In this document: positions 10,931 through 57,854 of the stretch, one piece after another | How the letters are laid out: each line of letters begins with the position of its first letter | Numbering within the stretch: position 1 is the stretch's first letter | Source of the DNA: an uncultured Rhodothermaceae bacterium | GTDB lineage: Bacteria > Bacteroidota > Rhodothermia > Rhodothermales > JAHQVL01 | Length of the DNA stretch: 64,000 nucleotides | NCBI GenBank assembly: GCA_964525535.1 | Contig: CAZGHT010000016.1 | Coordinates: 1,834-65,833 of the forward strand | Direction: 5' to 3' | Made by a program: the position numbers and the translations under genes | The notes under the pieces: generated by a model | What the model saw: only the letters and a program-made list of their open reading frames with translations | Told to the model about the DNA's origin: nothing | Databases searched by the model: none

Positions 10931-12298
10931 TCAGGGCCTGTTGTTCTGGCGGCGCGCTTTGAAGTTGTACGCAACACCCAGGTCGACCCCGCCGGCGGTG
11001 ACGTCGTAGCCGCCGAGCACGATCAGGGGGCCGAAGTTGCCCACCAGTCCGACAGACGCGCTGAATTCGAAGTCGCGGTCTCCGTTCAGCTCCGTCATCA
11101 TAGCGCCGAGCCCTACCATCGGCTGGACGGGCGATTTGAATACGTCGTAGAAGCTGACGAGCCGGCCAATAATATGTTCGTTCTCGACCGTCGAGCGGTT
11201 GATGACGGCTTCGTTGACGGCAACCTGGAGCAGAAACCCGCCCTCCGGCTGCACGTACCCGGCCGATAACCCGATGGGGGCGAATTTAGTATTCCCGTAA
11301 TAACCCACCGTACCGCCGGCTACGGCCACGATGGCTACAGCCGCTGCTCCGGCGAGGGCCACGGGGAGTAATTCATCGTCGTCATCGTCATCGTCGTCGT
11401 CGTCTTTTTTCCTGGATCGACCGGATGTGATGTCCTCGATGGCTCCGCCGGCCTCGTCGCCGCCCTGCTCTTCGTCCGCCGGCCTCCGATTTCGGCGGTC
11501 TTCTCTGGAGCGCGGCTCCTCGTCGTCGGGGGCGGCCCCACGCCCGGTACGTTCGCCCCGGGGCTCACGCGTCCGGGAGGCATCCCCGACGTAGCGCGGG
11601 GGGCGGCTGATGTAGATCGGGATGTCGATGATGACGTCGACGGAAGGGCCGTACACGGTTTGCCGGCGCGGTCGCCGCGATCCAGCCTGCGGCCGGCTGC
11701 TGCGGGTGAGTACGGGTTCCTCTCCGAAGTAGACGAACGTCATGTTGACGATGCGCGGGTTGCCGAGCTCGAAGGAGCTGGCGAAATACGATTGAGCCGT
11801 CGAATCCGGTACGCCCGGGAAGACGGTGTCCCAGCCGAGGGTGTTCACCTCCATGGAAAACAGGCCCGGATAAGGCGGGAGCATCAGGCTGTCGACGACG
11901 AAGTCCACTTGAGAAACGACGTCTTCTTCCACGAGCACATCGACGCGCAAATGGAGGGACTCGATGTTCACCTCGCCCTGGAGATCGCTGAAGGCGAGTT
12001 TGTTGCCGTCCATATAGACGGCATCGCCCGGCTTCCACTCGACGGCAAAGGTCAGGAAGGGCTGCTGACGGGTGGATCGATACCCATAACCGACGGAAAG
12101 CGTGTCGATAGACGGGAGGATCTCCGCGTGGGCTTTGAGGGAATCCAGCGATACGATGTCGTCCTCGGAGCTCGGCCAGTCTGTGATGTGCAATACGCCG
12201 TTGCTTAATGACCAGTCTTGCCCGTAGGCTGGGGGCAGGAGTTGAGGCAGGAAATAACCGCAGGCAAACGCAATCAGGATCGAATAAAGGCGTGTCAT
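10931..12298 (-). CDS. Hypothetical envelope protein with R/P/E-rich linker, Asp10 run, hydrophobic segment and Gly-rich beta-like C-terminus
   Basis: 455 aa. Signal peptide MTRLYSILIAFACGYFLPQLLPPAYGQ. The D10 run is encoded at 11375-11404, followed by the hydrophobic segment LLPVALAGAAAVAIVAVAGG. I recognise no family. Confidence 0.6.
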   Translation of the reverse strand: MTRLYSILIAFACGYFLPQLLPPAYGQDWSLSNGVLHITDWPSSEDDIVSLDSLKAHAEILPSIDTLSVGYGYRSTRQQPFLTFAVEWKPGDAVYMDGNKLAFSDLQGEVNIESLHLRVDVLVEEDVVSQVDFVVDSLMLPPYPGLFSMEVNTLGWDTVFPGVPDSTAQSYFASSFELGNPRIVNMTFVYFGEEPVLTRSSRPQAGSRRPRRQTVYGPSVDVIIDIPIYISRPPRYVGDASRTREPRGERTGRGAAPDDEEPRSREDRRNRRPADEEQGGDEAGGAIEDITSGRSRKKDDDDDDDDDDELLPVALAGAAAVAIVAVAGGTVGYYGNTKFAPIGLSAGYVQPEGGFLLQVAVNEAVINRSTVENEHIIGRLVSFYDVFKSPVQPMVGLGAMMTELNGDRDFEFSASVGLVGNFGPLIVLGGYDVTAGGVDLGVAYNFKARRQNNRP

Positions 12299-12457: not shown

Positions 12458-12540
12458 ACTATCGTAACATGGAGTTGCCGATTTGGTGTAAATTCAGTAA
12501 TTACCCCATAGCTCGTCTTTCGGAATGTTGCTACACGCTC

Positions 12541-15500
12541 ATGACTCAATCGCACTTCTGTAGGATCCTGCTGGACATTACCGCGCGCGTTGTTGCTGTA
12601 TTCGTTATGGGATGTCTGGCAGCTTCGTCCGGTTCAGCGCAGTCTACGCCGGTGCCTTTTCAACGGCTCTCGGTCAACGACGGACTGTCCCACAACAACG
12701 TAATCGACATTCACCAGGATCGGTTCGGCTATCTGTGGTTCGGTACGGAGAGCGGGCTCAATCGATACGATGGGTATGAGGTCGTCGTATACAAACATCA
12801 CGTGGGTGACCCACGCAGTTTGAGCGACAACTGGGTGTACGACATCTACGAAGACCGTCAGGGCGATCTGTGGATAGCTACTGAAGCAGGGCTGAACCGA
12901 TACGACCGGGACGGCGACGCCTTCGAGCGTCACCTGGTCGGAGCCGATTTTCCCGGCGGAGGCCGTGCTGATGTATTCTCGATAGCCGAAGACGAGGCCG
13001 GCCGGCTCGTTATGGGCACGTACAATGGGATGGTGCGCTACGACGTCGCCCGGAATCTCGTCGACGTATTCAATAAAAATGTCGAACAACCCGGAAGCCT
13101 GCACGCAGATACGGTATATGCCGTGCTCGAGGATTCCGGAGGCACGATCTGGCTGGGGACCTGGCGCGGTCTGGCCCGGTTCGACGAGGCTACAGATACG
13201 TTCATCCAGTACCGTCACTCGGCGATCGATCCGTATAGCCTCTCCTCAGATAATGTACGGGCCATTTATCGCGATCGATCGGGGGCGCTGTGGATAGGCA
13301 CCGGTAATGGCCTCAACCGGTTCGATGAACGGCAGGAAACGTTTATACGATTTCTGGCAGAGCCCGGAGTAGACGGCGCCTTGCAGACCGATGCGATCTG
13401 GGATATCTACGAAGATCGGAAGGGGCAGCTCTGGATCTCGACGGTCGGGAGCGGGCTGTACCGCTACGAAGAAGAGACGGGCTCGTTCTGGCAGGTGCTC
13501 AGCAGCGCACGCGCCAGGGGGGCGAATGCAAACCGGCTCCAGGCCGTGCTGGAAGACCATTCGGGCGTCTTATGGGTCGGCAGCGCGGGAAGCGGCGTCT
13601 ACTTTCAGGATCGGGTCAGCGGATATTTCGGGCTCATCGCCAGGGATCCCGATGCGCCCGGTGGACTCAGCTCGAATGAAGTCTTCGGCATCGAGGAAGA
13701 CTGGTCCGATCCGGATATCCTGTGGATCGGCACGAGAGGCGGAGGGCTCAACCGGCTCGATCGCTCCACGGGCCGGCTCACCGTATTTCGGCATGACCCG
13801 GGGAACGAAAGAAGTCTATCCCACGATGTCGTGGAGGCGATACTGGTCGACCGAGCCGGCGCCGTCTGGGTCGGGACGTGGGGCGGCCTGGACCGGTATG
13901 ACCGCGATACGCAGTCGTTCACGAGGATCTCGTTCGATGAAGAGCGGGAGCTCGACCGGTGGAAACGCATCGTCTATGAAGCGCCGTCGACGCCCGGTGT
14001 GCTGTGGATCGCCTCCGGCGCACGGGGACTCGTGCGGTACGACGTACAGACGGGGGACTTCACGGTCTTCAGCCACGATCCCTCCGACGTCTATACGCTG
14101 GGGGGCAACTGGGTGGCTTCTCTGTACGAGGATCGCCGCGGCCGGTTATGGGTCGGAACCGAAGGGGGAGAACTCAACCTGTTCGACCCGGTCTCGGCAT
14201 CCTTCCGGCGATTCGCTTTTGACCCCGACACGCCGAACAGCCTCAAAAGCCAGGATGTGTATGCCATTAACGAAACGCCGGATGGGATGCTCTGGCTGGG
14301 TACGGAGAACGGCCTCGTTCGATTCGACTCGGACCGCGGCCAATTCCGCCACTTCACGGAAGACAACAGCGACGTGTCCAGCAACATGGTGTACGGGATT
14401 GAGGTAGATGACGAAGGGATGTTGTGGGTCAGCACGCTGGGCGGTTTGAACCGGTTCGACCCGGTCTCGGCATCGTTTCGCAACTACGACCTGGATCGGG
14501 GGTTGCAGGCGAGGGCGTTTCATCCGTTTGCTGCGCATCGAGGGGCTTCCGGCCGCATTTATTTCGGAGGCCCCGGCGGGCTCAATGTGTTCCACCCCGA
14601 AGAGATCAATGAAAACCCGCACCCCCCGCGCATCGTCCTCGACGACCTAAAGCTGTTCAACCAGAGCGTTGTACCCGGTGAGACCTCGCCGCTGCTGCAC
14701 TCGATGCTCACCACGAATCACATCGAGCTGGCCCCCGACGAGAATGACATCTCACTGGGCTACCTCGGGCTCCACTTCAGCAACCCGGGCAACATCAAAT
14801 ATGCCTACAAACTCGACCCCTATGATTCGGACTGGCGGGAGGTTGGCGCCACCCGGACGGCTACGTACACGAGCCTCGGTCCGGCTACGTACACGTTCTC
14901 TGTCAGAGCGGTGAGTCCGGATGGCGTGGTCAGCGAATCGGAACCTGTGTCTATCCACATTCGCACTCCGTGGTGGAGACGGCCCTGGGCAATGGGTTTG
15001 TATGTGTTGATGCTCGGAGCCGGCATGTACGGCGTACATACGTTCCAGAGCCGGCGTCTCGTTCGCAGGGAGCAAATCCGCGCTCGCATCGATCAGGCCG
15101 AACTGCGTGCCGAGGCGGCCGAGCTCGCCCGGCAGGCCGTGGAGATGGAATCTCGGGCGTTGCGGGCCGAGAACGCCCGGCATGAATCCGAACTGCAAAA
15201 AGCGCAGGAACTCAAAGAAGCGTACGATGCGCTCGAGCGATCGATGCAAGAATTGAGGAAGACGCAGGAGCAATTGATCCAATCCGAGAAGATGGCGTCC
15301 CTGGGGATGCTCATGGGCAGCATCGCGCATGAGCTTAAGAATCCATTGAACTTCGTGACTAACTTCGCCAGTGTCGTGAATGAGTCCCTGGACGAACTGA
15401 GAGAACTTGCCCGTACGAAGCTGTCTCCCTCGGATCGAGGTGACGCGGAGGATCTGGAGGAATTACTGGAGGTGATCAGCATCAATACATCGAAGATCGA

Positions 15501-16065
15501 GAAACACGGTTACCGGGCCGATCAAATCGTATCCTCGATGATGAAACATGTCAGTGGCATACAAGGCCAGCACGTACCGACCCGGCTCGATGCACTCCTC
15601 GACGAGTCGATCGATCAGGCATATGCGCGTTTTCGCGAGCGCGACGACGCCGTCGCTGTGATTTTTCGGCGAGATTACCACCACGCTCTCGAAGAGATAT
15701 CGCTGATTCCCCAGGATATGAAACAGGTGTTCGTCAATATTCTGGATAACAGTTTTGATGCGATGTCGGAGAGAGCGACGTCGAAGCGGATGGGGGATAC
15801 ATATAGCCCCGAATTGACCGTCGAAACCGTTCGTACGGAAAAAGGGGTTGAAGTTCGCTTTGCAGACAATGGCATCGGGATAAGGAAAGAACACCTCCAT
15901 CAAGTGTTCGACCCCTTTTTTACGACGAAGCCGGCCGGCAAAGGCAGCGCCGGCCTGGGGTTGTCGTTGTGTTACAACATCGTGGTTACCGGGCATCAGG
16001 GGCGCATGGCGGTAGAGAGCGACATGGGGAAAGGAGCCACTTTTGTGGTCGAATTGCCAATATAG
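12541..16065 (+). CDS. Hybrid-architecture sensor histidine kinase: periplasmic two-component-regulator propeller repeats + Y_Y_Y domain + TM + coiled coil + HisKA/HATPase
   Basis: About 12 repeats of the G.LW.GT..GL.R(F/Y)D type. Y_Y_Y block YAYKLDPYDSDWREV...YTFSVRA, TM WAMGLYVLMLGAGMYGV, H-box GSIAHELKNPLN, and ATPase blocks DNGIGI and GSAGLGLSL. I chose the ATG at 12541 over the ORF start at 12469. No response regulator is adjacent. Confidence 0.88.
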   Translation: MTQSHFCRILLDITARVVAVFVMGCLAASSGSAQSTPVPFQRLSVNDGLSHNNVIDIHQDRFGYLWFGTESGLNRYDGYEVVVYKHHVGDPRSLSDNWVYDIYEDRQGDLWIATEAGLNRYDRDGDAFERHLVGADFPGGGRADVFSIAEDEAGRLVMGTYNGMVRYDVARNLVDVFNKNVEQPGSLHADTVYAVLEDSGGTIWLGTWRGLARFDEATDTFIQYRHSAIDPYSLSSDNVRAIYRDRSGALWIGTGNGLNRFDERQETFIRFLAEPGVDGALQTDAIWDIYEDRKGQLWISTVGSGLYRYEEETGSFWQVLSSARARGANANRLQAVLEDHSGVLWVGSAGSGVYFQDRVSGYFGLIARDPDAPGGLSSNEVFGIEEDWSDPDILWIGTRGGGLNRLDRSTGRLTVFRHDPGNERSLSHDVVEAILVDRAGAVWVGTWGGLDRYDRDTQSFTRISFDEERELDRWKRIVYEAPSTPGVLWIASGARGLVRYDVQTGDFTVFSHDPSDVYTLGGNWVASLYEDRRGRLWVGTEGGELNLFDPVSASFRRFAFDPDTPNSLKSQDVYAINETPDGMLWLGTENGLVRFDSDRGQFRHFTEDNSDVSSNMVYGIEVDDEGMLWVSTLGGLNRFDPVSASFRNYDLDRGLQARAFHPFAAHRGASGRIYFGGPGGLNVFHPEEINENPHPPRIVLDDLKLFNQSVVPGETSPLLHSMLTTNHIELAPDENDISLGYLGLHFSNPGNIKYAYKLDPYDSDWREVGATRTATYTSLGPATYTFSVRAVSPDGVVSESEPVSIHIRTPWWRRPWAMGLYVLMLGAGMYGVHTFQSRRLVRREQIRARIDQAELRAEAAELARQAVEMESRALRAENARHESELQKAQELKEAYDALERSMQELRKTQEQLIQSEKMASLGMLMGSIAHELKNPLNFVTNFASVVNESLDELRELARTKLSPSDRGDAEDLEELLEVISINTSKIEKHGYRADQIVSSMMKHVSGIQGQHVPTRLDALLDESIDQAYARFRERDDAVAVIFRRDYHHALEEISLIPQDMKQVFVNILDNSFDAMSERATSKRMGDTYSPELTVETVRTEKGVEVRFADNGIGIRKEHLHQVFDPFFTTKPAGKGSAGLGLSLCYNIVVTGHQGRMAVESDMGKGATFVVELPI

Positions 16066-16133: not shown

Positions 16134-16424
16134 ATGCACACAAAACCCATCATGGTTATGACCGATCAAGAGCTTATCGCCCGCGAAAAAGAGCTGCAGA
16201 GCCAGCTTCGCATTCAACCCACGCTGAATCTCGAATTCAAAGCGCTGATATCCAGGCTTTTTCGCGAGCATAATATTGAAATCGCGCCAGATGTGTTGTC
16301 GAAATTGACGCTCGCTCTGGATCGCACCGCTGCCGAGGAGCCCCGCCCGATCGACGCCTCGCTGGCCTCAGTGGATACGTCTCAGGATTCGGGTTTCGGG
16401 TTAGAGCCTCATCACATCGGATAA
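16134..16424 (+). CDS. Small hypothetical protein (96 aa), helical N-terminal part and acidic/Ser-Thr-rich tail
   Basis: MHTKPIMVMTDQELIAREKELQSQL...AAEEPRPIDASLASVDTSQDSGFGLEPHHIG. The ORF is free of the kinase gene and lies 15 bp upstream of the oxygenase gene. I recognise no family, so its coding status is not proven. Confidence 0.45.
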   Translation: MHTKPIMVMTDQELIAREKELQSQLRIQPTLNLEFKALISRLFREHNIEIAPDVLSKLTLALDRTAAEEPRPIDASLASVDTSQDSGFGLEPHHIG

Positions 16425-16439
16425 GGTGAACGCCCGGCG

Positions 16440-17006
16440 ATGCGCCCTTTTTTACAGCCCGGCCCGGGGATCGTTACCATGAACCTGATGCAGGGGGATG
16501 AGTGCCGCAGCATCATCGAATCGGTTCCGGATGAAGCCTGGACCGCCGCTCGCGTTCGGACCCGCTCTGCCACGGCCGCCGTCGCTACCGTAGAGCGATC
16601 TGCGTCGACCGTGACCCTTCCGGAAGAGGCTCCAGCCTGGGCCCTGCTGCATGGTCGCATTCACAACGTGGTGCGTCCGCTCGTGTATCGCATCTGGCGG
16701 CGCGACTTCGTCGATCACTCCAGCATCAACCTCGTTCGTTATGAGGAAGGGGGCTTCTATCGAGCGCACACGGACAGCGGCCGGTTTTCGAAGACCCGGT
16801 ATATCACGATCCTCTGTTATTTGAACGACGACTTCGAAGGTGGCGGGACCTATTTTCCGAACGGGGATGTTGAGATACACCCCGAGGCCGGCAAGGCCGT
16901 CCTCTTTCCATCGGACTACCTGCATCGGGCCAATACCGTCGAGAACGGCCAGAAATACATCGCCCTGTCCTGGCTGGTTGCTCCCCCTCCGATCGCGTGG
17001 ATCTGA
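16440..17006 (+). CDS. 2OG-Fe(II) oxygenase, prolyl-4-hydroxylase-like
   Basis: YEEGGFYRAHTDSG (HxD) ... GGGTYFP ... AGKAVLFPSDYLHRA ... KYIALSW. The start could instead be the ATG at 16479. Confidence 0.8.
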   Translation: MRPFLQPGPGIVTMNLMQGDECRSIIESVPDEAWTAARVRTRSATAAVATVERSASTVTLPEEAPAWALLHGRIHNVVRPLVYRIWRRDFVDHSSINLVRYEEGGFYRAHTDSGRFSKTRYITILCYLNDDFEGGGTYFPNGDVEIHPEAGKAVLFPSDYLHRANTVENGQKYIALSWLVAPPPIAWI

Positions 17007-17022
17007 GCGATCCGAGGGAGCC

Positions 17023-17997
17023 TTACGGGGCGCCGTTCAGCCACAGAGCCGGCTCCCTGATACGCGTGCACCAACCGCCCTCGATCAGCGATTCTGCATC
17101 GGCGGGATTGTCCATAACGAACCGAGACGCGTAAAATCGGGCCATCTGTTCGAACTGCCCGGTGTGAACGACGTCCCGGGCGTCGAGATGGGTCGAGCCG
17201 ATGGCCGATCGGATATCGAACTGATCGTACCAGCGGTCGCCGAAGGCGCCCAGGGTTTCGTATTTTCTGCGGAAGTGCTGGAAACCGCAGCACGGGTAGT
17301 GCAAAATAGCCGGAGTACGTCCGCCGCCGATCGAGACAGCGTCCGGGGGGACCCTGAAACGGTGCACGCCGTTGACGCCGAGCCTATCCGTTACCCGGGC
17401 TGCGGCCTTCCCGTTGCTGTAAAAGTGAAACCAGGTGGGCGGGATAGCCGCAAAGGAGGGAGGCCTCAGAGGGCGCGCGTGGGTAGACGAATTGGTCTTG
17501 AACAACGTAACGTCCCGGAAAATATCGCCCACGTCAAACCGTTCCGGGATGGCTTCGTGATTCGTATACCAGCAGTGGTCCACGCCCTGTTCGTCCAGCG
17601 CGGCAAAATGATCCTTTACGGATTCGTGAGGACTGTAAAACAGCTCGTCGCTGTCGATGTGGATGATCCAGTCGATCTTTCTTTGGAGCGCTTCCTCTAT
17701 GGCAACCGCGCAGTTGAATTGTTGCCTGGCCATGGCTTCGCGATCTAAAAAGGAATGCACCTTTTCGGGCGTTTTTCGGCGTACCCGCTCCCACCGGCGG
17801 CGCAGCGCATCGTCGCGGAAAATACAGCTCACCCGGGGGTCATCGTCGACCCGTTCGAAGGAGGCGTCATTCGGATTGTCGAAGAAGAGGAAGAGGTGGT
17901 CGATCCCGATATGGAGATGGTAACGAACGAACGAGACCAGCGTCTGTTCGGCGTCGCACAACGTCGTCGCCAGCGCGATGGTCGGGGGAGACTTCAT
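17023..17997 (-). CDS. Glycosyltransferase-like protein (GT2/GT92-like fold, DxD-type motif)
   Basis: About 324 aa from MKSPPTIALATT. Motifs: FVRYHLHIGIDHLFLFFDN, and HIDSDELF as a DxD-type motif. The track ORF extends to 18264, but that extension overlaps the upstream gene and is low-complexity. Confidence 0.6.
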   Translation of the reverse strand: MKSPPTIALATTLCDAEQTLVSFVRYHLHIGIDHLFLFFDNPNDASFERVDDDPRVSCIFRDDALRRRWERVRRKTPEKVHSFLDREAMARQQFNCAVAIEEALQRKIDWIIHIDSDELFYSPHESVKDHFAALDEQGVDHCWYTNHEAIPERFDVGDIFRDVTLFKTNSSTHARPLRPPSFAAIPPTWFHFYSNGKAAARVTDRLGVNGVHRFRVPPDAVSIGGGRTPAILHYPCCGFQHFRRKYETLGAFGDRWYDQFDIRSAIGSTHLDARDVVHTGQFEQMARFYASRFVMDNPADAESLIEGGWCTRIREPALWLNGAP

Positions 17998-18022
17998 TGC
18001 GACATACCTCCGGTTATTGTGG

Positions 18023-18967
18023 TCACAGGAAGAAGCCGTTCTCGTGGATGTAAAAAGAGTCGGGCATGTCTTTCCACTGGGGGATCGTGAAATGGGGTTC
18101 GTATTTATGAAAATGGAAGTGGAAGTACAAGATTTCCTCGTCGCCGTGGAGGTCGAAGAGCCGGCCTTCCTTCCAGTGCAGAAGCCAGTGTTTCCGGTGC
18201 AGGTCCATCCGCTCCCGCACCAGGTGTGGGAAATAGGCCTGGATGCGGCCTTCGTCAGCCGCACGCCGGACGACGTGTGTGATGCTCTCGACCTCGACCA
18301 GCGCCGTGTCGAGCGGATATCCGTCCAGTAAGTGCCGCCAGGCGAAATTGCATTCCGAAAAAGAGTAATGTTTAGGGGTGATGAACACGAATGGATAATC
18401 CGGACAACGTTCGAACAGGGTGTTGACGGCCGGGCTATTTCTGAACAGGGTGAAGTGGCCGGTAATGTACTCGGGCCGGGTTGTGATCACGTCGTACTCC
18501 TGCAGCAGCTCTGGCGTGATGAACGAGCGAATCTGGCCGTAAATCATGTCGACTTCGACGTAGCCCCAGGCATCGAAGTCGCCCAGGTAGTCCTCGAAGA
18601 TGACGCCGAAAGCCGGGCGAAGGTCGTTGAGCTTAAACGCTTCTTTAAACTGAATGGGAAGATCGAGCCTGTCCGAGGCCCGTTTGCATATATCGCCCAG
18701 GGTGGCCGGGATAATCTGGATGTTGGGTTGGGCCTCGGACTCCGGTATACAATCGGTGAAGAGCACGAAGTGAATGTCGGGATTGTGACGGGCGGTATGA
18801 AGGTAGATGCGAATCCACCGCGGCGCCTCGCCGAAGTAGCAGGTGATCAGGCAAAGGGACGGTGGGCCGGTTGGCCCTTTTTCATCGAGGGGTGTATGCA
18901 CGGTGCGACCCGGTAAAAGATGACGAAGTTCAACGCGGCTGGTGCGTGTGGACAGTTCGCAAACCAT
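18023..18967 (-). CDS. Uncharacterised DUF6625-like protein, putative glycosyltransferase
   Basis: 314 aa. N-terminal pattern CLITCYFGEAPRWIRIYL...NPDIHFVLFTD and WGYVEVDMIYG. The family assignment is from memory only. Confidence 0.45.
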   Translation of the reverse strand: MVCELSTRTSRVELRHLLPGRTVHTPLDEKGPTGPPSLCLITCYFGEAPRWIRIYLHTARHNPDIHFVLFTDCIPESEAQPNIQIIPATLGDICKRASDRLDLPIQFKEAFKLNDLRPAFGVIFEDYLGDFDAWGYVEVDMIYGQIRSFITPELLQEYDVITTRPEYITGHFTLFRNSPAVNTLFERCPDYPFVFITPKHYSFSECNFAWRHLLDGYPLDTALVEVESITHVVRRAADEGRIQAYFPHLVRERMDLHRKHWLLHWKEGRLFDLHGDEEILYFHFHFHKYEPHFTIPQWKDMPDSFYIHENGFFL

Positions 18968-19020
18968 CGCGTACGAACGGGCCGGCGTACTGAAAACGGC
19001 CTGTTATCCCGCGGCGCCGG

Positions 19021-20043
19021 CTAACGCTCGGGATCTCGAGAGCCCAGTACAAACTCACCGACGATGGGTTCAGCAAATTCGGTGGTTTTGCAGATACGTG
19101 CAAGCCGTTCTTCCGGCGCTCCGCCGCCGAGGGCGCAGGGGCCGAGGTTCAACAATTCTCCCACCAGATAAAAGGTCTGGAAAAGGCATCCGACCTCTTT
19201 GAGGATGAGGCTGTAGGCCAGATCGCCGTAAACCTTCCCTGGATGGCTGTACCGGCTGGTGACGAGAATGACGATCGGCGGTTTTTCTGACCCGGCGCTC
19301 TGGGCCGCCGCATATAAAAAGGGAAGATAATCGGCTCCTTCGGTGGATAACGACTCCAGCCCATGCCGGTGAGGCAGGTACCTGTAGATACCAGCAGGTA
19401 TCGAGGCGACCGCATCCGAAGAGACGACGAGATACAGTTCGAGTGAGTACATAGCGCCTCCCGAGGGGTAGGGACGGGACGAGTGTGTATCCGGTCCTGC
19501 TGCGTTCGCTGTCGTTCTGGCTCGTGCGCTCAGCCATAAAAACGCCGATAATTTTTCGAATGGAATCGGACCTTTCGGCCATTCCCGCCAGGACTGTCGC
19601 GCCTCGAGCACATGGACAAAATCGCGAGACGGCCCCGCATAACCCCGCTCGAGCGGATGGAAAAGCCCCGTCGCCTGGTTGAATGGTTCAGGTCTTTCTC
19701 GATCCGGGGACCTGGGGATATCCGGACGCCGTGCGCGTTTATGATAGGCGAGCGCGCACTTTTCCCAGTGGTTCGCGGCGGCTTCTTCTTGCCCTGAATC
19801 CCGGATCAGGATGCCGGCATGGATCAGGTCTCTTACTCGGGTACGCAGGTAGTTCTCCTCCGAATCGGTGAACCCTGCGATAGCCTCGTCGATCGTCCGG
19901 GGCGTAACAAAGGCATGAACCAGACGGACCAGCTCGAGGTCGTAGGTCGATAACGGCGTGCCCGAAGCGGCCGATGAGATTTCGATCCGGCCTGCCGACC
20001 AGGAGACGAGGCTATACCTGGAAACAACCCATCGTTCAATCAT
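19021..20043 (-). CDS. SagB/ThcOx-family (nitroreductase-fold, FMN) dehydrogenase
   Basis: 340 aa. Motifs: RQSWREW, SSRPYPSGGAMYSLELYLVV, IYRYLPHRHGL, LILKEVGCLFQTFYL, GPCALGGG. It has an N-terminal extension of about 90 aa, typical of SagB-type proteins. Confidence 0.75.
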   Translation of the reverse strand: MIERWVVSRYSLVSWSAGRIEISSAASGTPLSTYDLELVRLVHAFVTPRTIDEAIAGFTDSEENYLRTRVRDLIHAGILIRDSGQEEAAANHWEKCALAYHKRARRPDIPRSPDRERPEPFNQATGLFHPLERGYAGPSRDFVHVLEARQSWREWPKGPIPFEKLSAFLWLSARARTTANAAGPDTHSSRPYPSGGAMYSLELYLVVSSDAVASIPAGIYRYLPHRHGLESLSTEGADYLPFLYAAAQSAGSEKPPIVILVTSRYSHPGKVYGDLAYSLILKEVGCLFQTFYLVGELLNLGPCALGGGAPEERLARICKTTEFAEPIVGEFVLGSRDPER

Positions 20044-20207
20044 GATCGATCGTGTGATCTATGCAGTGAAGGAGGTCTCTCTGGCCTCTGTGCCGGCAGA
20101 ATCTCCGCATTCTACGACCGGCAACACGCAATGTATTGATTTCTGGGTAATTATTGTATATATCGTGCAAGGGGGGTAATTACTGGCATTCAACATCGGA
20201 AAAGACT

Positions 20208-21752
20208 ATGATACAGAAAGCGCTATTGACCATCTCTATGGCGGCATGCCTGCTGTTTGGATCCTCCTGTGAGCCTGAGGGGGAGCCGCCGACGCCGCGG
20301 CCCAACGTCGTATTGATCATGGCGGACGATCTCGGGTATTCGGATATCGGGGCGTACGGTGGAGAGATCGATACGCCGCACCTCGATCGACTGGCCGCAG
20401 AGGGCATCCAGTTCACCCGGTTTTACAACAACGCTAAATGCACCGAGTCCCGGGCGGCGCTACTGAGCGGCATCTATCACCATCAGAGTCAGAATTTCGA
20501 AGTCATGAATCACGTGACGCTGGCTGAAGTGCTCAAGGAGGCCGGCTACACAACCCTCATGACCGGGAAATGGCACCTGCCCGGTAATCCGGTGGATCGC
20601 GGGTTCGATCGCTACTTCGGCTTTCTCGTCGGGGCGGTGAACTTCTTTACGGGGCAACGCTGGGGGAGTGACGAAAACCCGATGCGCCTGGACGCCCAGG
20701 TATTCGAAGTGCCCGAGAGCGGGTTTTACACCACCGATGCGTTCACCGACTACGCCATCGAGTTCGTCGACGAAGCCCTCCAGGAGGAGGCCCCCTTCTT
20801 TCTGTACGTCGCCCATAATGCCCCGCACTACCCGCTTCATGCGTGGCCCGAAGACATCGAAAAGTATAAAGGCCGGTTCGACGAAGGGTGGGATGCGCTC
20901 CGCGAGGCGCGGTATGCCCGGATGGTAGAGATGGAGCTCATCCAACCGGGATGGCCCCTCACGCCGAGAGATTCTATCGTACCGGCGTGGAGCACCCTGT
21001 CTGCTGACAGACAGGCCGAGGAAGCCCTGCTCATGGAAGTCTACGCCGCCATGGTCGATCGCATGGATCAGAATATCGGCCGGTTGATGACGCACCTGGA
21101 GGAGCGCGGTGTGGCCGACAATACGCTGGTGCTCTTCATGTCGGACAACGGGGCCTGCCCGTACAACGCCACCCGAGTGCCGGACGTGCCTCCCGGGCCG
21201 AAAGAGGGGTATAAAACGTACAACAGCCCCTGGGCGAATGTTGGAAATACGCCCTTTCGTTCCTACAAACAATACAGCCACGAGGGAGGTGTCGCGTCGC
21301 CTATGATCGCCTACTGGCCGAAGGGCATAACCATGCCGGGGACGCGCACCGATCAGGTAGGGCATCTGATCGATCTCATGCCGACGCTGGTCGAAGTAGC
21401 GGGAGCTTCATATCCCGAGGTCTACGCCGGGTATGACGTGCTGCCTGCAGAGGGCGTGAGCCTCGCGCGGGTATTCGAAGGCGACGTGCTCGAAGCACGG
21501 CCGCCGATCTACTGGGAATTCGTCGGCAACCGGGCCGTCCGCGACGGCGACATGAAGCTGGTCGCCAATCGATCCCAGAACTGGGAGCTGTATCAGATGG
21601 TGGAGGATCGTACGGAACTCGACGATCTGGCAGGCAGCCTGACGGATAAGCGAGAACGCCTGGCCGCTATGTATGACGCCTGGGCGGCTCGAACGGGAGC
21701 CAGGAGCAACCAGGAAGGGCTTGCGATGAAACCGTCGACGCAGGCTCGATGA
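20208..21752 (+). CDS. Arylsulfatase-family protein (lipoprotein signal), non-canonical active-site motif CTESR
   Basis: PNVVLIMADDLGYSDIG ... AKCTESRAALLSG ... MTGKWHL ... FMSDNG. I chose the ATG at 20208 (MIQKALLTISMAACLLFGSSC). Confidence 0.85.
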   Translation: MIQKALLTISMAACLLFGSSCEPEGEPPTPRPNVVLIMADDLGYSDIGAYGGEIDTPHLDRLAAEGIQFTRFYNNAKCTESRAALLSGIYHHQSQNFEVMNHVTLAEVLKEAGYTTLMTGKWHLPGNPVDRGFDRYFGFLVGAVNFFTGQRWGSDENPMRLDAQVFEVPESGFYTTDAFTDYAIEFVDEALQEEAPFFLYVAHNAPHYPLHAWPEDIEKYKGRFDEGWDALREARYARMVEMELIQPGWPLTPRDSIVPAWSTLSADRQAEEALLMEVYAAMVDRMDQNIGRLMTHLEERGVADNTLVLFMSDNGACPYNATRVPDVPPGPKEGYKTYNSPWANVGNTPFRSYKQYSHEGGVASPMIAYWPKGITMPGTRTDQVGHLIDLMPTLVEVAGASYPEVYAGYDVLPAEGVSLARVFEGDVLEARPPIYWEFVGNRAVRDGDMKLVANRSQNWELYQMVEDRTELDDLAGSLTDKRERLAAMYDAWAARTGARSNQEGLAMKPSTQAR

Positions 21753-21913: not shown

Positions 21914-22465
21914 ATGGACGCGTTGGTGCGCCGGCTACGGCATTCAGACCACGAAGCGTACGAGTGCATATTTCAACAGATGCACGAGCCGTTATTGAAG
22001 TACGTGTTTCGGATCATGAGGGACGAAAGCCTGGCGCTGGACGTATTGCAAGACGTGTTCATGAAGTTGTGGGAGAAACGGGGGCAACTCGAAATCCAGG
22101 TGTCGTTGAAAGCCCTCCTGTATACGATGGCGCGAAACAGGGCCTTGAATATCAAGCGGGATCGATCGAAGCGCAGCTGTGATGTTGAGTTCCTCGAAGA
22201 AGGAGCCTGGGAAGATCACAGCTCGTCGGCCGAGCAGCTCGTGCAGGCAGGGCAACTGGACGCCTACTTTCGACGCTGGATCGACGAGTTGCCGCCCCGG
22301 CGGGCGGAAGCCTTCGCCCTGAGCCGGTATCATGCGCTGAGTCATAAAGAAATTGGGGCCGTCATGGGGCTGTCGAAACGCACGGTCGATACCCACATCG
22401 TCCATGCACTCCGTTTTCTGAGGGAGCGGTACGAGAAGCTCCAGCAGCAAGGCGTGAACCGCTAA
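21914..22465 (+). CDS. ECF-type RNA polymerase sigma-70 factor
   Basis: 183 aa with region 2 (DVLQDVFMKLW) and region 4 (LSHKEIGAVMGLSKRTVDTHI). Confidence 0.9.
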   Translation: MDALVRRLRHSDHEAYECIFQQMHEPLLKYVFRIMRDESLALDVLQDVFMKLWEKRGQLEIQVSLKALLYTMARNRALNIKRDRSKRSCDVEFLEEGAWEDHSSSAEQLVQAGQLDAYFRRWIDELPPRRAEAFALSRYHALSHKEIGAVMGLSKRTVDTHIVHALRFLRERYEKLQQQGVNR

Positions 22466-22489
22466 ACTATTTTTCTCTAAGGTGCCATT

Positions 22490-23452
22490 ATGAAGCGAGG
22501 CGATATTCCTGATCGATTGAGCGAAGCTCTGTATGACCAGCGATCCGAAGATAAGGAGTCCCTGGAACGTATCTGGCGTCTGGCTGAGGGAGCCGATCTG
22601 GAGCCGCAGATTGCTCCCGACACCATCCAGGTTGCCTGGCAGGAGCTGGCTCACGCTACTCGTATCTCCGATGTAAGAAGGGATCGGACGCCCTCGCGGC
22701 GCAGCACTCGTTTCAGGTTGCCGTATGCCCGGGTCTGGCTCCCGGTCACTGCGCTCGTATCAGGCCTCGCCCTCTTTTTCTGGTTCCAGCCGGTTATCGA
22801 AGAAGCCCCTCGCGGTGAGCAGTTGTCGGTCGTCCTGCCGGACCGCTCTCAGATCGAGCTCAACAGCGGTTCCCGTATTCGGTATCCTCGTTTTTTCTCC
22901 TGGAGCCGCACGGTTCACCTCGAGGGGGAAGCCTTTTTCGACGTCGAGACAGCGGACGTCCCATTCGTCGTTTCGACCTTTAATGCCGAGGTGCGTGTGC
23001 TGGGCACCTCATTTAATGTCAGAGCCTGGGAAGAGAGCATGCAGCCGGTTTCCGTGATCACCTTGAATTCGGGCTCTCTCGAGCTGGCTGCACGGGCGTA
23101 CCGGTCTGCCCGGTTTGTTATGGAGCCCGGCCAGACGCGCGTCGTGGGGGGGCGTCGATCTGCTGCTTCTCCTCCCGTGTCACCTCCCGATACATCCACG
23201 TTTGCTTTTGCGATGGCCTGGCGGGATGGGGATCTCGTCTTCAAGGATCAATCGTTCGGAGTGGTGTTAGAAGACATTGAGAGGCGGTTCGACCTCGACC
23301 TGGTCCTGCGTGCCCATCAATTCGCCGACAAAAAAGTCACCTTTTCGTTTCGGCGCCCCGAGGCTGTCGAAGAAGTGATCGAGAGTCTATGTATGGCGCT
23401 CGGTATGCAATACAGAGCTACCGTCACCGGGTATGAAATTTATCGGCCATAA
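22490..23452 (+). CDS. FecR-family anti-sigma/transmembrane sensor
   Basis: 320 aa with one TM segment and the FecR block GEAFFDV....PFVV.T....V.VLGTSFNV. Confidence 0.85.
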   Translation: MKRGDIPDRLSEALYDQRSEDKESLERIWRLAEGADLEPQIAPDTIQVAWQELAHATRISDVRRDRTPSRRSTRFRLPYARVWLPVTALVSGLALFFWFQPVIEEAPRGEQLSVVLPDRSQIELNSGSRIRYPRFFSWSRTVHLEGEAFFDVETADVPFVVSTFNAEVRVLGTSFNVRAWEESMQPVSVITLNSGSLELAARAYRSARFVMEPGQTRVVGGRRSAASPPVSPPDTSTFAFAMAWRDGDLVFKDQSFGVVLEDIERRFDLDLVLRAHQFADKKVTFSFRRPEAVEEVIESLCMALGMQYRATVTGYEIYRP

Positions 23453-23453
23453 C

Positions 23454-26171
23454 ATGCTGCAGACACGCAGGCTACATCTCATTGTTTGTGTGGTGTCGAG
23501 TTGCCTGGTCGTTCCGGTGTATACGGGAGCAGCGCAGGACCACTCATCGCGACCAGAGGACAACTCCATCGCATCAGGCGAAGCGGTAGTGGACAGGCAT
23601 AGCTTCGTCTTGATGGGGGTGCCGCTCGAGGAAGCGCTGGCCCTGTTGATTGATCAGACCCGAATCGATCTCTTCTTTGAATCGGAACTCGTTGATGGAA
23701 AAACGACCTATTGCGCCATTGAGCAGGCCGGGCTCGAAGCGGTGCTCCGTTGCATCCTGGCCGGGACGACGCTGGATTATTACCGGCTTTCAACCGGCGT
23801 TTATGTGCTGACCGCCGGTCCCCTGGGCGCTGTGGCCTACGGGTCCGTGACCGGACGCGTCATAGACCGGCAGACCCTGGAGCCGTTGCCGGATGCTTCC
23901 ATTATGCTGGCTGATGCGGCGACGGGAACGACGACCAACGAGGCCGGCCGTTTTGCATTACGCCAACTCGAACCCGGCCTGCATCCCATTGTGGTATCCC
24001 ACGTCGCGTATGAGGCCGGCGTTGATTCGGTGTGGCTTTCTCCCGGTGAGCACCGGGACCTGGAGGTCGTCCTTCAAGCGCGCACCTTTGAGTCCACGCC
24101 GATCATCGTGAATGGCCTGTATGAGCGCATGCCTTCGGCGCAGTTGGGCAAAGGTGAATTGACGGCTGAGGCGTTACAGCGCCCGGGGCCGAGCGCCACT
24201 CCGTCCACGTATGAGGTCTTAAATGACGTAGTAGGCGTTCGCATCGGGGATACCTTTGCAGATCTTCACGTTCAGGGCGGCGACTCCGGAGAGCATCAGC
24301 ACAGGCTGGATGGGGTGCCCATCTTCGTGCCCCTTCGGAATGGCGGGTTTTTCGGAGCGTTCAGCCCCCTTGCCATCGAACAGATCACCGTACACAAAGC
24401 GGGTTTTCAGGCGAGTGAAGGCAGCTTCCTGTCGGGAGCCATCGAAATGGATCATGCAATAGCTTCCCGTGAAAAAGAGCGTATAGACGTTCAGGTCGAC
24501 CCCCTCAGCGTGAACGGACGCATTCAGGGGCAAGAGCGGTTCTCTGAGTCCGTTCGCGGATCCTGGATGGTTGCCGGTCGTCTGGGGTTATGGGGCCTGT
24601 TTCAGCCGGCTCCTGTCGAGCGCCGTTTCAGGATGTGGAGCCAGCCCGGCTCATTCGTCTCCAGTGTGTTGTCATCCGGATCCCGACCTGGTTGTTCGGC
24701 CGAGGTCGAACGCAGCCCTCCATTACACATCGAGTTTTCGGATTTTCATGCGGCCACACGCCTTCGGTTCGGAGCTACCCGTAGTCTGTATGCGTCTTTG
24801 TATCAGGGCAGCCACGCGTTCGGCATAGGCGACAGGTCATCGTCGACCGGTTCAGGTGAAGATCGCGAGCAGGATTATTCCTGGTTGAATACGATGAGGC
24901 AGGTGCGTTACGAGTGGGTGCAGGGGCAACGTGGGTTCATGCACGTGGGCTTCTGGAGCAGTTCGTACAGGCTTGAGCACCCGGTGGATCGCTCCCCCTT
25001 TTCGTCGGATACCGGTCTCGTTGAACTCGACGACTTCGACGAAATTATCGAAACGGGCATCAGCGTGGGTTTCGATTATGCCATCGGCGCCCGTCATACC
25101 CTGTCCGGGAAGCTAGAGCCCGTATTGACGGAGAGCGAGTTTTCCCTGTCGATCGATCCTACAGGCGTCTCGGCGCCCATCGATCATCACATCCTCGCTC
25201 CGGCCCGGTGGTATGTGCAGGGGTTTTTAGAAGACGTGCTCGCACTCAGCGACCGCAGTCAGCTCACGCTGGGGGCCAGATATACCTATGTACCGGCGCA
25301 ACAGCGCCTGTACGCCGAGCCGCGATTGTCCTGGCGTTACGATCGTCCCGATGGGCCGGGAGGCGCCTGGGCCTTCCAGGCGGCGGCCGGTTTGTATCGC
25401 CAGTTCATTTACCAGTTCGATGTCGCAGATTACAATGCATCGACCCTCCTGCCCGGATTCCGGTTTTGGATCCCTATAGGGAAACATATGCGCGCCTCGA
25501 CTGCCTATCATCTGGCCAGCAGTGTGTTGTTTGCCCCCGCTGAGCACTGGCAACTGCTCGTAGAAGGATTTTACAAATACCAGCCTCATCTCATGGTGCT
25601 CGATTATGCCGGCAGTGAAGGCCTGTTAGCGGCCCGCGGATACGCCTATGGGAGTGCTGTGGCCTTGAAATACGAAACCCGGGCGTTCCGCATTCAGGGC
25701 CATTACGAATACGACGTCGCTCGCCGGCAGGTAAACAACCGTTTTGGAGGGGCATTCGTATCCGTACCCTGGGAGGCTCCTCATCAGACGCAGCTATCGA
25801 TTGGCTATACGCTCTGGGAGGGACTGACTGCCACGCTGAGATGGCAGGGAATCTGGGGGCGTTCCTGGGCATTTCGCCAGGCTTATTACGATTATCTGGA
25901 GCCCTTGAGCGAACCGAATCGGTCAGCAGCGGATCTGTTTTCGCATCCGGAGCGTGATGTCCTGCCGGCCTACTCCCGGGTGGATGCGGGTTTCGGCTTT
26001 GCCCGGCGGTTGGGCCGCTTACGTCTACAGGCGCGGGTGAACGCGATCAACCTCTTCGATCGCAAGAACGAACTCGATTGGATCCTGGAAGACGACGGCG
26101 GCCGCCTCGTCAGGAAAGCGCGTACCGCAATCCCTCTGTTTTCGTCCTTTTCGATCCGCATACGGTACTAA
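23454..26171 (+). CDS. TonB-dependent receptor with N-terminal STN signalling domain and CarboxypepD_reg-like domain
   Basis: STN block VPLEEALALLIDQTRIDLFF...LEAVLRCILAGTTLDY. Carboxypeptidase-regulatory block VTGRVIDRQTLEPLPDASI, followed by a long beta-barrel. I chose the ATG at 23454, directly after the fecR stop. Confidence 0.85.
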   Translation: MLQTRRLHLIVCVVSSCLVVPVYTGAAQDHSSRPEDNSIASGEAVVDRHSFVLMGVPLEEALALLIDQTRIDLFFESELVDGKTTYCAIEQAGLEAVLRCILAGTTLDYYRLSTGVYVLTAGPLGAVAYGSVTGRVIDRQTLEPLPDASIMLADAATGTTTNEAGRFALRQLEPGLHPIVVSHVAYEAGVDSVWLSPGEHRDLEVVLQARTFESTPIIVNGLYERMPSAQLGKGELTAEALQRPGPSATPSTYEVLNDVVGVRIGDTFADLHVQGGDSGEHQHRLDGVPIFVPLRNGGFFGAFSPLAIEQITVHKAGFQASEGSFLSGAIEMDHAIASREKERIDVQVDPLSVNGRIQGQERFSESVRGSWMVAGRLGLWGLFQPAPVERRFRMWSQPGSFVSSVLSSGSRPGCSAEVERSPPLHIEFSDFHAATRLRFGATRSLYASLYQGSHAFGIGDRSSSTGSGEDREQDYSWLNTMRQVRYEWVQGQRGFMHVGFWSSSYRLEHPVDRSPFSSDTGLVELDDFDEIIETGISVGFDYAIGARHTLSGKLEPVLTESEFSLSIDPTGVSAPIDHHILAPARWYVQGFLEDVLALSDRSQLTLGARYTYVPAQQRLYAEPRLSWRYDRPDGPGGAWAFQAAAGLYRQFIYQFDVADYNASTLLPGFRFWIPIGKHMRASTAYHLASSVLFAPAEHWQLLVEGFYKYQPHLMVLDYAGSEGLLAARGYAYGSAVALKYETRAFRIQGHYEYDVARRQVNNRFGGAFVSVPWEAPHQTQLSIGYTLWEGLTATLRWQGIWGRSWAFRQAYYDYLEPLSEPNRSAADLFSHPERDVLPAYSRVDAGFGFARRLGRLRLQARVNAINLFDRKNELDWILEDDGGRLVRKARTAIPLFSSFSIRIRY

Positions 26172-26174
26172 TTT

Positions 26175-31853: not shown

Positions 31854-32429
31854 ATGCCGGAATCACGAGATGCCTCGGACGAAGACCTGTCTGGCCGTAT
31901 AAAGAACGGAGATCCCCACGCCTTCAAAGAGTTGTTCGATGCGAATTACGGTTCATTGTTCAGGTTCTTCATTCACCGCGGCATGGATCCTGGTCGAGCC
32001 GAAGACATGGCGCAGGATATCTTTGTGCGGGTTTGGCTGAATCGAGATCGTTTGAAGCCGGGCAGTTCGTTGCGTGCGTACCTGTTTCAGGCAGCGGCCA
32101 ACGAGATCGGGATGTACCTTCGGAAGAAGAAAGTGCGTGACGATTATGCCTCCGATGTACGACAGAATACCGCCCCCTTCTCGCCTCCCATCCAGGATTT
32201 CGATCGAAAGCAGCACATTCAAAAAGCGATCGATGCACTGCCCGAGCCCTTGCAAGACGTATTCGTGCTGCATCGGTACGACGAGCTGACCTACAAAGAA
32301 ATAGCCCTCCTCAGGAGAGTCTCGGTCAAGACGGTCGAAAGCAGGATGAGCAAAGCGCTCAAGCTGTTGCGAAATCACCTTCATCATCTGGTTCATTCGA
32401 TAATAGCTACGCTCATATGGGTGATATAG
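31854..32429 (+). CDS. ECF-type RNA polymerase sigma-70 factor
   Basis: Region 2 (DMAQDIFVRVW) and region 4 (LTYKEIALLRRVSVKTVESRM). I preferred the ATG at 31854; a TTG at 31830 is also possible. Confidence 0.88.
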   Translation: MPESRDASDEDLSGRIKNGDPHAFKELFDANYGSLFRFFIHRGMDPGRAEDMAQDIFVRVWLNRDRLKPGSSLRAYLFQAAANEIGMYLRKKKVRDDYASDVRQNTAPFSPPIQDFDRKQHIQKAIDALPEPLQDVFVLHRYDELTYKEIALLRRVSVKTVESRMSKALKLLRNHLHHLVHSIIATLIWVI

Positions 32430-32458
32430 GGTCATATCGTGCTGGCGCATATCTCATT

Positions 32459-35263: not shown

Positions 35264-35273
35264 CTCCCTATCT

Positions 35274-36272
35274 ATGATGGAATACGACGATCAGACATAC
35301 TACGTGCTGATGCTCAAGTCTCTGGAGCAAGAGATCACGGAGCAGGAAAGGAACGTGCTCACTGCGTGGCTCGCCGCTTCGCCGTCGAACCGGCGGCAAT
35401 TTGAGCAGGTGGAACGCGTCTGGGAAGCCACGGCCCCCTCCCCCAGGCGGTCGGAGCCCAACCATGAGGAGGCCTGGCGCGTTGTGGTAGAACGAACCGG
35501 TCTGCCCGATTCGGGCGATCGCGCACCCGTACGGCGCATCGGGAGGTCCTCGCTCTGGCGATACAGGTGGCTGGTCGTGCCGGCGGTTATTCTTTTTGCA
35601 TCGGCGATCTGGATGTTGATGCCTCGCTCCCCTCGAATGGTAGAAGTGGCGGCCGGTACGGCAGGCTCACGTACCGTGTATCTGCCGGATAGCTCGCTGG
35701 TGCGGCTCAATCCTGGCGCCCATTTGCGTTTTCAGGAGGCCTTTTCCGGAGCAACACGAGCCGTTATCCTCGAGGGGGATGCTTTCTTCACCGTTAAAAA
35801 AGGGGATCGATCGTTTGTCGTCGTCCACCAGGCTGTGGAAGTCGAAGTGCTGGGCACCCAATTCAGCGTCCGGGTGCGCGAGCGCCAGACGCGTGTAGTC
35901 GTTCAGGAAGGACGGGTGCGTGTGCAGTCTCGCAAGGCTCCGGACGTGCAGGTGGAACTGCTGGCCGGCGAAGGGGCCGCCTGGGTCGAGGACGCCCGTT
36001 TCGCTGCGCTCGATAGCACCGCTGTTCGAGACGGACTGGATTGGATCGGCGGCGTGGTCCTCTTCGAGCAGACCGCATTTACAGACGCTGCTGAAAAGCT
36101 CGCTCGTGTGTTCGGCAAGGCGATCGACGTGTCCGATCCCGCGCTGGGCCAGCAATTCGTTTCCGGCAGTATTGAGCTCGTCGATGGGGTGCAGGCCCTG
36201 AATACACTCTGTCTCACCCTTTCAACTCCCTGCACCGTCGTTTCCGCAGGCGATACGCTCGTCGTGGAATAA
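35274..36272 (+). CDS. FecR-family anti-sigma/transmembrane sensor
   Basis: 332 aa with TM segment WLVVPAVILFASAIWML and the FecR block GDAFFTVKKGDRSFVVVHQAVEVEVLGTQFSV. Confidence 0.85.
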   Translation: MMEYDDQTYYVLMLKSLEQEITEQERNVLTAWLAASPSNRRQFEQVERVWEATAPSPRRSEPNHEEAWRVVVERTGLPDSGDRAPVRRIGRSSLWRYRWLVVPAVILFASAIWMLMPRSPRMVEVAAGTAGSRTVYLPDSSLVRLNPGAHLRFQEAFSGATRAVILEGDAFFTVKKGDRSFVVVHQAVEVEVLGTQFSVRVRERQTRVVVQEGRVRVQSRKAPDVQVELLAGEGAAWVEDARFAALDSTAVRDGLDWIGGVVLFEQTAFTDAAEKLARVFGKAIDVSDPALGQQFVSGSIELVDGVQALNTLCLTLSTPCTVVSAGDTLVVE

Positions 36273-44433: not shown

Positions 44434-44457
44434 ACCTGTGTCGATTAAAATTCCTGG

Positions 44458-57770: not shown

Positions 57771-57854
57771 CGGCAAGCCCCCCTTGCCATCCTGACGCTT
57801 TATGTGTATAGTATGTCACACCTGTCTCGATGGCCGCAATTTCTCGATACCCGC

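Follow-up and report, generated by a model that had tools for sequence, protein, structure and literature searches.

To our knowledge, the hydroxylation of proline followed by its glycosylation is counted among the modifications of eukaryotes (and giant viruses), examples being the oxygen-sensing role of Skp1 and, in plants, cell-wall proteins and peptide hormones. For bacterial prolyl 4-hydroxylases (P4Hs) of the Bacillus anthracis type we know of no dedicated adjacent substrate gene or glycosyltransferase, and our literature searches for bacterial clusters that combine a P4H with a glycosyltransferase returned only eukaryotic or viral systems. Here we describe a locus on a 64-kb stretch of contig CAZGHT010000016.1 from an uncultured Rhodothermaceae bacterium (the whole stretch is called the window below), in which the gene for a small protein is followed by that for a P4H-type 2-oxoglutarate (2OG)-Fe(II) oxygenase and lies near an operon encoding a SagB-family dehydrogenase, a DUF6625 protein and a GT2-type glycosyltransferase. 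Our reading, to which we assign a probability of roughly 45%, is that the locus may encode a cytosolic module for the prolyl hydroxylation, and probably the glycosylation, of the small protein's tail, as judged from sequences and structure predictions.

The Skp1 pathway of Dictyostelium and Toxoplasma employs the P4H PhyA, Gnt1 and further cytosolic glycosyltransferases (PMC3515798, PMC11570480). The likeness is that a soluble P4H-type oxygenase and soluble GT-A transferases would act on a small, non-enzymatic protein in a manner dependent on O2 and 2OG, all of which is predicted for the locus described here; a regulatory purpose is also plausible, given the adjacent sensor kinase. There are differences, however. 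The substrate in the window would be a new protein, made of three helices and a proline-rich tail, that matches no Pfam or NCBIfam model, and multiple or repeated tail prolines contrast with the single defined proline of Skp1. The DUF6625 protein is not recognisably a homologue of the GT60 enzyme Gnt1, a Pfam scan having matched no other glycosyltransferase family, and the putative system of the window is bacterial and linked at the operon level. The resemblance to a Skp1-type pathway is one of logic only, and the locus stands outside the Skp1/GT60 systems.

A second parallel is provided by the hydroxyproline-rich glycoproteins and hydroxyproline-containing glycopeptides of plants and algae, together with the P4H of chlorovirus PBCV-1, which acts on proline-rich repeats. 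Common ground is found in proline-rich, often repetitive, disordered sequences and a P4H of the PF13640 type (PDB 5c5t), with glycosyltransferases acting after it. Those systems are secretory, however, or viral in a eukaryotic host, whereas all components here are predicted to be cytosolic, with no signal peptides, and the glycosyltransferase families are not the same. The bacterial P4Hs of B. anthracis and other organisms (PDB 5iax, 3itq, 5hv0) share their catalytic domain family and their Fe and 2OG ligands with the window enzyme, although the similarity is low (E ~1e-8) and restricted to the C-terminal half.

Comparison of gene order across lineages shows that the conserved unit consists of a kinase, the proline-tailed small protein, the P4H and DUF6625, rather than the orphan SagB. 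The small open reading frame (ORF) is followed by a P4H gene in five lineages: tblastn finds the pair in the window, L027/L033, L030 and L032, and L031 is counted from a reading by eye. Among these loci identity to the window is 50-61% for the N-terminal domain (N-domain) of the small protein and 36-42% for the P4H. L027/L028 carries on one strand a small ORF of 94 aa (53% N-domain identity), a P4H (42%) and DUF6625 (42%), with the stop codon of the P4H in L027 overlapping the start of DUF6625; L033 has the same gene order as L027 and ~80% nucleotide identity to it, and hence represents the same lineage. Three further loci of ~1 kb each came from a metagenome scan with a seven-sequence subset of the small ORFs. 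L030 encodes, on one strand, the C-terminus of a kinase (ending at its HATPase_c domain), the small ORF and the P4H. In L032 the small ORF is followed by a P4H within which the contig ends, and in L031 by a P4H-like N-terminus that was read by eye, the contig ending 77 codons in and tblastn giving no P4H match.

The P4H and DUF6625 are one gene apart in the window and directly consecutive in L027 and L033. Because the two arrangements differ, being co-directional and overlapping in one case and convergent in the other, it is proximity itself that appears to have been retained. A conserved neighbour that the original prediction had overlooked is a sensor histidine kinase, which adjoins the small ORF in three lineages (the window, L027/L033 and L030) and in two orientations; in L027/L033 a homologue with a Y_Y_Y domain (38% identity over 571 aa) lies divergent, upstream of the small ORF. 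In L031 and L032, whose upstream flanks are short, no such kinase is seen. The window kinase has neither a receiver nor a DNA-binding domain, and the recurrence of a kinase of this receiver-less type suggests that a signalling pathway controls the module or receives its output. Neither SagB nor GT2 has a homologue in any other small-ORF locus (L027/L033, L030, L031, L032). The co-occurrence of the five genes, named in the original prediction as a check to be made in related genomes, is found in part: the small ORF and P4H recur in five lineages and DUF6625 in two, with SagB and GT2 seen in the window only.

The small protein founds a new, unnamed protein family, on the evidence of sequence searches. 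Searched exhaustively with phmmer, a set of 1.84 billion representatives yielded 20 family representatives at E<=1e-3; a word-indexed search with the small ORF matched only itself, and Pfam and NCBIfam models, including the Nif11 and NHLP leader models, gave no match at a useful E-value. Source names exist for two family members, both of them Rhodothermales metagenome-assembled genomes. Since all homologues align from residue 9 of the 96-aa ORF that was first called, the likely start is the ATG at 16158; the gene is real and conserved, and it is the start that probably has to be moved, giving 88 aa. Neither the small ORF nor GT2 turned up in scans of viral contigs, and a plasmid search with the DNA of the small ORF and P4H also gave no match.

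In the family alignment an N-domain of ~58 aa, with the consensus ..AELQ..LR..PRL.LEFLA..SRLFREH.ID..PEVL..LTL, is followed by a hypervariable tail. The AlphaFold2 (AF2) model of the window protein has three helices (residues 3-19, 21-37 and 44-54) with a predicted local distance difference test score (pLDDT) of ~90, in agreement with the ~60-aa helical N-terminus noted originally, and a disordered tail with pLDDT below 50. A fold search of the PDB with this model gave no significant match (best E 1.4). An assignment as an Hpt-like phosphotransfer domain was considered and rejected, several members having Tyr or Phe in place of the conserved histidine. In two family members the three-helix N-domain is duplicated in tandem (this observation covers P0157, P0162 and P0161). 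Comparison of L027 with L033 gives ratios of nonsynonymous to synonymous substitution (dN/dS) of 0.26 for the N-domain, 0.85 for the tail, 0.35 for the P4H and 0.44 for DUF6625. The N-domain is under purifying selection while the tail drifts, and this, with the 20 representatives, removes the concern that the small ORF might not be conserved.

The family tails are alike in composition and unrelated in sequence. Pooled, they contain 17% Pro (4% in the N-domains), 20% Asp plus Glu, 10.5% Gly, 11% Ser plus Thr and 0.1% Cys, and at least three prolines are present in 20 of 22 tails. The longest reach 142 aa. Many of the tails are made of tandem repeats such as EEQPTPAPVPHMDE[FV] (six to seven copies), GDPPPTTREG..ALA (four), GPPQTHD (five), DLPTPQPTH (four), EPAPxGG (five) and GGPPPVPV (three). 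The tail of the window protein, AEEPRPIDASLASVDTSQDSGFGLEPHHIG, is acidic and disordered, with three prolines.

The oxygenase encoded next to this protein matches PF13640 (2OG-FeII_Oxy_3) with 56.8 bits against a cutoff of 27, and its best PDB matches are the B. anthracis P4H (E 1.7e-8), a transmembrane P4H, the PBCV-1 P4H and other prolyl hydroxylases. Its AHTD, LHRA and GQKY sequences align to the HxD, distal His and Lys motifs of the B. anthracis enzyme; the Fe triad HxD...H and the 2OG-binding basic residue are both present in a protein that scores above the Pfam gathering threshold. Peptidyl-proline hydroxylation is the activity that we infer for it, from homology and from the proline-rich tail encoded by the neighbouring gene.

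The DUF6625 protein matches PF20330 with E 3.6e-53 (181.5 bits, cutoff 27). Its AF2 model (pLDDT 86.6, predicted TM-score 0.84) has a GT-A fold, for which Foldseek found GT6 ABO transferases, GT8 proteins, LARGE1, CpsY, glycogenin, LgtC and YeGT (E 5e-6 to 1e-3, TM 0.3-0.43), and generic GT-A proteins were matched in BFVD. The DxD position reads E138-V-D140 in the window lineage, with D140 invariant and the first Asp replaced by Glu. The model points to a nucleotide-sugar transferase-like enzyme of the GT-A fold. Residues 1-32 of the ORF are unconserved, with pLDDT below 50, and the true start may be a GTG at ~18901, in which case the gap between SagB and DUF6625 would be ~120 bp. A full-text literature search for DUF6625 found no paper.

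DUF6625 appears to be a general glycosyltransferase family of which one subset is coupled to P4H. Other homologues (40-47% identity) occur in unrelated contexts; that in L025, for example, adjoins a KAS III-like gene. A distant member (~30% identity) on the Lactococcus lactis plasmid pS74 (L035, 43242-44228) belongs to a Wzx/Wzy exopolysaccharide cluster, where it lies between a polymerase-like O-antigen ligase family gene and a flippase, and this supports glycosyltransferase activity for the family. Genes similar to that of pS74 are found on Lactiplantibacillus plantarum plasmids. In L026 (3565-12434) adjoining DUF6625 and Mannosyl_trans3 genes lie ~3 kb from class I lanthipeptide genes, which comprise a LanB-like dehydratase, LanC, a luciferase-like oxidoreductase and a GerE regulator. 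In L027 (3541-4350), L033 (2097-4199) and L034 (1305-1826) DUF6625 is followed by homologous secreted proteins with Sortilin/VPS10-BNR repeats, the DUF6625 gene of L034 being tandemly duplicated ahead of the Sortilin/BNR protein; the window encodes no homologue of this secreted protein.

The last gene of the operon encodes a protein that matches PF13704 (Glyco_tranf_2_4) with 46 bits against a cutoff of 27.5 and has a DSD motif in HIDSDELF. Profile searches with Pfam and NCBIfam agree with the domains first assigned throughout the locus, the one qualification being that the GT92 match of this protein is below cutoff (E 0.016, 15.2 bits against 23). No sequence relatives of GT2 were found in the PDB, nor a homologue in any other fetched locus, and GT2 looks like a lineage-specific addition on these sequence comparisons. 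Behind the closest relatives of the window DUF6625, P0123 and P0124 (67-68% identity), comes a gene in the same direction, which might be GT2; upstream, too little flanking sequence is present for a SagB to be visible.

Taken with the absence of predicted membrane segments from all five proteins (small protein, P4H, GT2, DUF6625 and SagB), which implies that any chemistry is cytosolic, these data are consistent with the following scheme. The three-helix N-domain would serve as a docking or recognition element, and the P4H-type oxygenase would hydroxylate prolines of the disordered, acidic tail, using O2 and 2OG. DUF6625 might then add a sugar to hydroxyproline or a nearby residue, which GT2, in the window lineage only, might extend. 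The modified cytosolic protein could report the availability of O2, 2OG or iron to the neighbouring kinase, or downstream of it. The substrate relationship, the hydroxylation, the glycosylation and the sensing role are what we infer from features that can be read directly, namely the gene identities, the conservation of catalytic residues, the predicted folds, the family-wide enrichment in proline and the synteny. The scheme is backed by the pairing of small ORF and P4H, the coupling of P4H with DUF6625, the proline-rich tails, the aligned residues of the P4H and the adjacency of the kinase. The idea of an undescribed protein-modification unit, put forward in the original prediction, has thus come through for the small ORF, the P4H and the glycosyltransferase-like gene, and has lost its emphasis on SagB.

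If the scheme is true, a dedicated proline-rich substrate with its own P4H and glycosyltransferase would show that hydroxyproline-sugar logic exists in bacteria; it would supply a function for DUF6625, at least for the subset linked to P4H, and a compact genetic system for hydroxyproline glycosylation, possibly with sensing of O2 or 2OG through a histidine kinase. A fuller version can be envisaged, in which the locus would be the first bacterial cytosolic hydroxyproline-glycosylation switch, feeding a receiver-less kinase, with a repurposed SagB that would oxidise a non-azoline target such as the pyrrolidine ring of (hydroxy)proline or the attached sugar. As a joint claim resting on sequence and modelling we think this quite improbable.

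Why, then, should the small protein not simply be an adaptor or regulator paired with the P4H and the kinase? On that account the P4H would hydroxylate the kinase, a translation factor or some other protein, and the product of the SagB-DUF6625-GT2 operon would be an unconnected glycan or glycolipid. A number of observations weigh against our reading, and several of them favour this account. P4H-type oxygenases are able to hydroxylate other residues and other proteins, and bacterial enzymes of this type with other protein targets are established, as in the hydroxylation of EF-Tu by Pseudomonas PPHD. The P4H pair and the glycosyltransferase operon converge in the window and so are not co-transcribed. 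The tail of the window protein has three prolines only, and two divergent family members, P0161 and P0162, lack a proline-rich tail altogether. DUF6625 is adjacent in two lineages only (the window and L027/L033), the other small-ORF contigs ending inside the P4H, and the window DUF6625 is no closer to its P4H-linked homologues (42%) than to those in unrelated contexts (40-41%). The occurrence of DUF6625 homologues in polysaccharide and other contexts, and of an adjacent kinase in three lineages, also speaks for the adaptor account. Set against this, L027 has P4H and DUF6625 in translational coupling and L033 has them side by side, and tails with 17% Pro beside a prolyl-hydroxylase-type enzyme are hard to dismiss. 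Moreover, no flippase, polymerase or priming transferase is annotated near the window glycosyltransferases, whose neighbours are the kinase, the P4H, a sulfatase, an ECF sigma factor, FecR and TonB receptors. The operon is no obvious Wzx/Wzy polysaccharide locus, and the fear that its transferases would fall in a known polysaccharide pathway has not been borne out. We consider the adaptor account unlikely.

The hydroxylation and glycosylation of a retained protein must also be weighed against maturation of a true ribosomally synthesised and post-translationally modified peptide (RiPP), with the N-domain as leader and the tail as one or several cores, which P4H, DUF6625, GT2 and SagB would tailor before cleavage and export. 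A conserved N-terminus with a hypervariable, tandemly repeated C-terminus does resemble a multi-core precursor, SagB-family enzymes are peptide maturases with an N-terminal extension, and lanthipeptide genes are found 3 kb away from one of the DUF6625 homologues. The N-domain, however, is a confidently folded three-helix unit without a match to known leader families; the tails reach 142 aa and lack Cys; and SagB is missing from the other small-ORF loci. Among the genes that flank the small ORF, neither a leader protease nor an exporter was seen in the window, in L027 or in L033 (in the window, no search by name was made for E1-like/SagC proteins, leader proteases or exporters); the flanks of the module in L027/L033 hold the kinase and the secreted Sortilin/BNR protein. 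An S41 peptidase is encoded more than 5 kb upstream of the window small ORF, with no homologue seen in other loci. These features make a RiPP pathway a decidedly unlikely explanation.

The SagB-family protein raises a different comparison. The clusters for azol(in)e-containing RiPPs, the thiazole/oxazole-modified microcins (TOMMs) and linear azol(in)e-containing peptides (LAPs), have a YcaO cyclodehydratase as their hallmark, accompanied by a SagB-type dehydrogenase (PMC4603692). The window resembles them in having a bona fide TIGR03605 SagB in the neighbourhood of a small ORF whose N-terminus is conserved and whose C-terminus varies. It differs in that YcaO is absent, in that the family tails have no core rich in Cys, Ser and Thr, and in that SagB is unlinked to the small ORF elsewhere. 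Because they contain essentially no Cys (0.1%), the tails are not azoline-type cores. The locus has no YcaO of its own, and Pro, Asp, Glu and Gly prevail in the tails; it does not qualify as a TOMM/LAP cluster. As originally noted, the window encodes no YcaO: tblastn with TfuA-YcaO (E<=0.97) and Pfam scans of 27 of the larger ORFs found no YcaO, TfuA or radical SAM protein in it.

SagB itself scores 134.2 bits against TIGR03605 (cutoff 78.4) and 43.3 bits against PF00881 (cutoff 23.5). It aligns end to end with 15 homologues, has the N-terminal extension and keeps all 39 of 39 invariant columns, so that an ordinary nitroreductase without the SagB N-terminal domain, a possibility raised at the outset, can be set aside. 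Of the canonical Lys-Tyr motif of SagB, the Lys is not conserved in the clade of the window protein and the Tyr is invariant. By sequence this is a genuine, intact SagB-family protein, for which FMN-dependent oxidation of a peptide is predicted.

Its nearest relatives are P0003 (58% identity) and P0004, P0005 and P0009 (51-54%). The last three are encoded in a cassette with a UCP032817-like protein, a TfuA-YcaO fusion and a radical SAM/SPASM protein (absent in P0009), and P0003, from L029, is preceded immediately by a radical SAM gene 81% identical to that of the cassette. The cassette is seen at L022 (3251-9086), L023, L024 (4386-9041) and L029, its UCP032817-like protein being PF27765 and its TfuA-YcaO fusion ~915 aa long; it is often flanked by transposases and integrases and is apparently uncharacterised. 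The cassette SagB has the same length and the same N-terminal extension as that of the window, but none of its partner genes is in the window, where the partners are DUF6625 and GT2. A scan of GTDB genomes with SagB gave matches of ~30% identity only, with none of the other genes nearby. With its nearest relatives in YcaO cassettes and no SagB at other small-ORF loci, the protein does not merit the leading place first given to it.

The gap between SagB and DUF6625 (53 bp, at most ~120 bp) contains no predicted terminator, in scans whose counts were near the shuffled expectation. Closeness on one strand without a predicted terminator suggests co-transcription with the glycosyltransferases, and SagB is probably co-transcribed with DUF6625 and GT2, an association seen in the window lineage only. 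From the sequence comparisons SagB is probably a local, lineage-specific add-on; it may have joined the DUF6625-GT2 operon recently, from a clade that partners TfuA-YcaO and radical SAM proteins. That SagB instead serves a YcaO elsewhere in the genome, as part of a cryptic or remnant TOMM-type pathway to which its neighbours are incidental, is very improbable: the enzyme is intact, its clade otherwise always lies beside TfuA-YcaO and the inspected part of the genome is 64 kb only, but it lies just upstream of DUF6625 on the same strand, those 64 kb hold no YcaO, and no Cys/Ser/Thr-rich precursor was noticed nearby, small ORFs having had no systematic scan. Genome-mining rules treat SagB as a TOMM marker. 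A SagB-family dehydrogenase can evidently leave the YcaO context, which is a lesson for such mining.

The features of the locus are collected in Table 1. The coordinates and gaps first given for all five genes were reproduced by the ORF list and by reading of the junctions: the small ORF and P4H are separated by 15 bp, DUF6625 and GT2 by 25 bp, and the converging stop codons of the P4H pair and the glycosyltransferase operon by 16 bp. The same locus, identical, is present in two Logan assemblies. An Rfam scan of the window gave no matches, and promoter and terminator scans of the locus gave counts near the shuffled expectation.

Table 1. Genes of the locus, with positions in the window
Feature	Position	Strand	Length and features
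Sensor histidine kinase	12469..16065	+	Reg_prop beta-propellers, Y_Y_Y, transmembrane segment, HATPase_c (Pfam)
Small ORF as first called	16134-16424	+	96 aa
Small protein from likely start ATG 16158	16158..16424	+	88 aa
P4H-type 2OG-Fe(II) oxygenase	16440..17006	+	188 aa; PF13640
GT2-type glycosyltransferase	17023..17997	-	324 aa; PF13704; HIDSDELF; last gene of minus-strand operon
DUF6625 protein	18023..18967	-	314 aa; PF20330
SagB-family FMN dehydrogenase	19021..20043	-	340 aa; TIGR03605 and PF00881

Around these genes, a sulfatase (20154-21752) is divergent from SagB, and two sets of extracytoplasmic function (ECF) sigma factor, FecR and TonB-dependent receptor genes are present at 21914-28625 and 32417-36272, the receptor at 32417-35263 having an N-terminal FecR_C domain. 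On the other side, a 455-aa ORF on the minus strand (10931-12298) has no Pfam match and contains a long poly-Asp run and a low-complexity middle rich in Arg, Ser and Pro. At 43228-47265, on the minus strand, a histone-deacetylase-family gene adjoins one for a 935-aa fusion of an ADP-forming acyl-CoA synthetase with a GNAT domain; by sequence this pair is a Pat-like protein acetyltransferase and deacetylase. Finally, at 53673-59366, a 1365-aa protein combining DUF4011, an AAA_11 helicase and an MTES_1575 restriction-endonuclease-like domain is followed by RmuC, and from their sequences the two look like a defence or DNA-processing pair.

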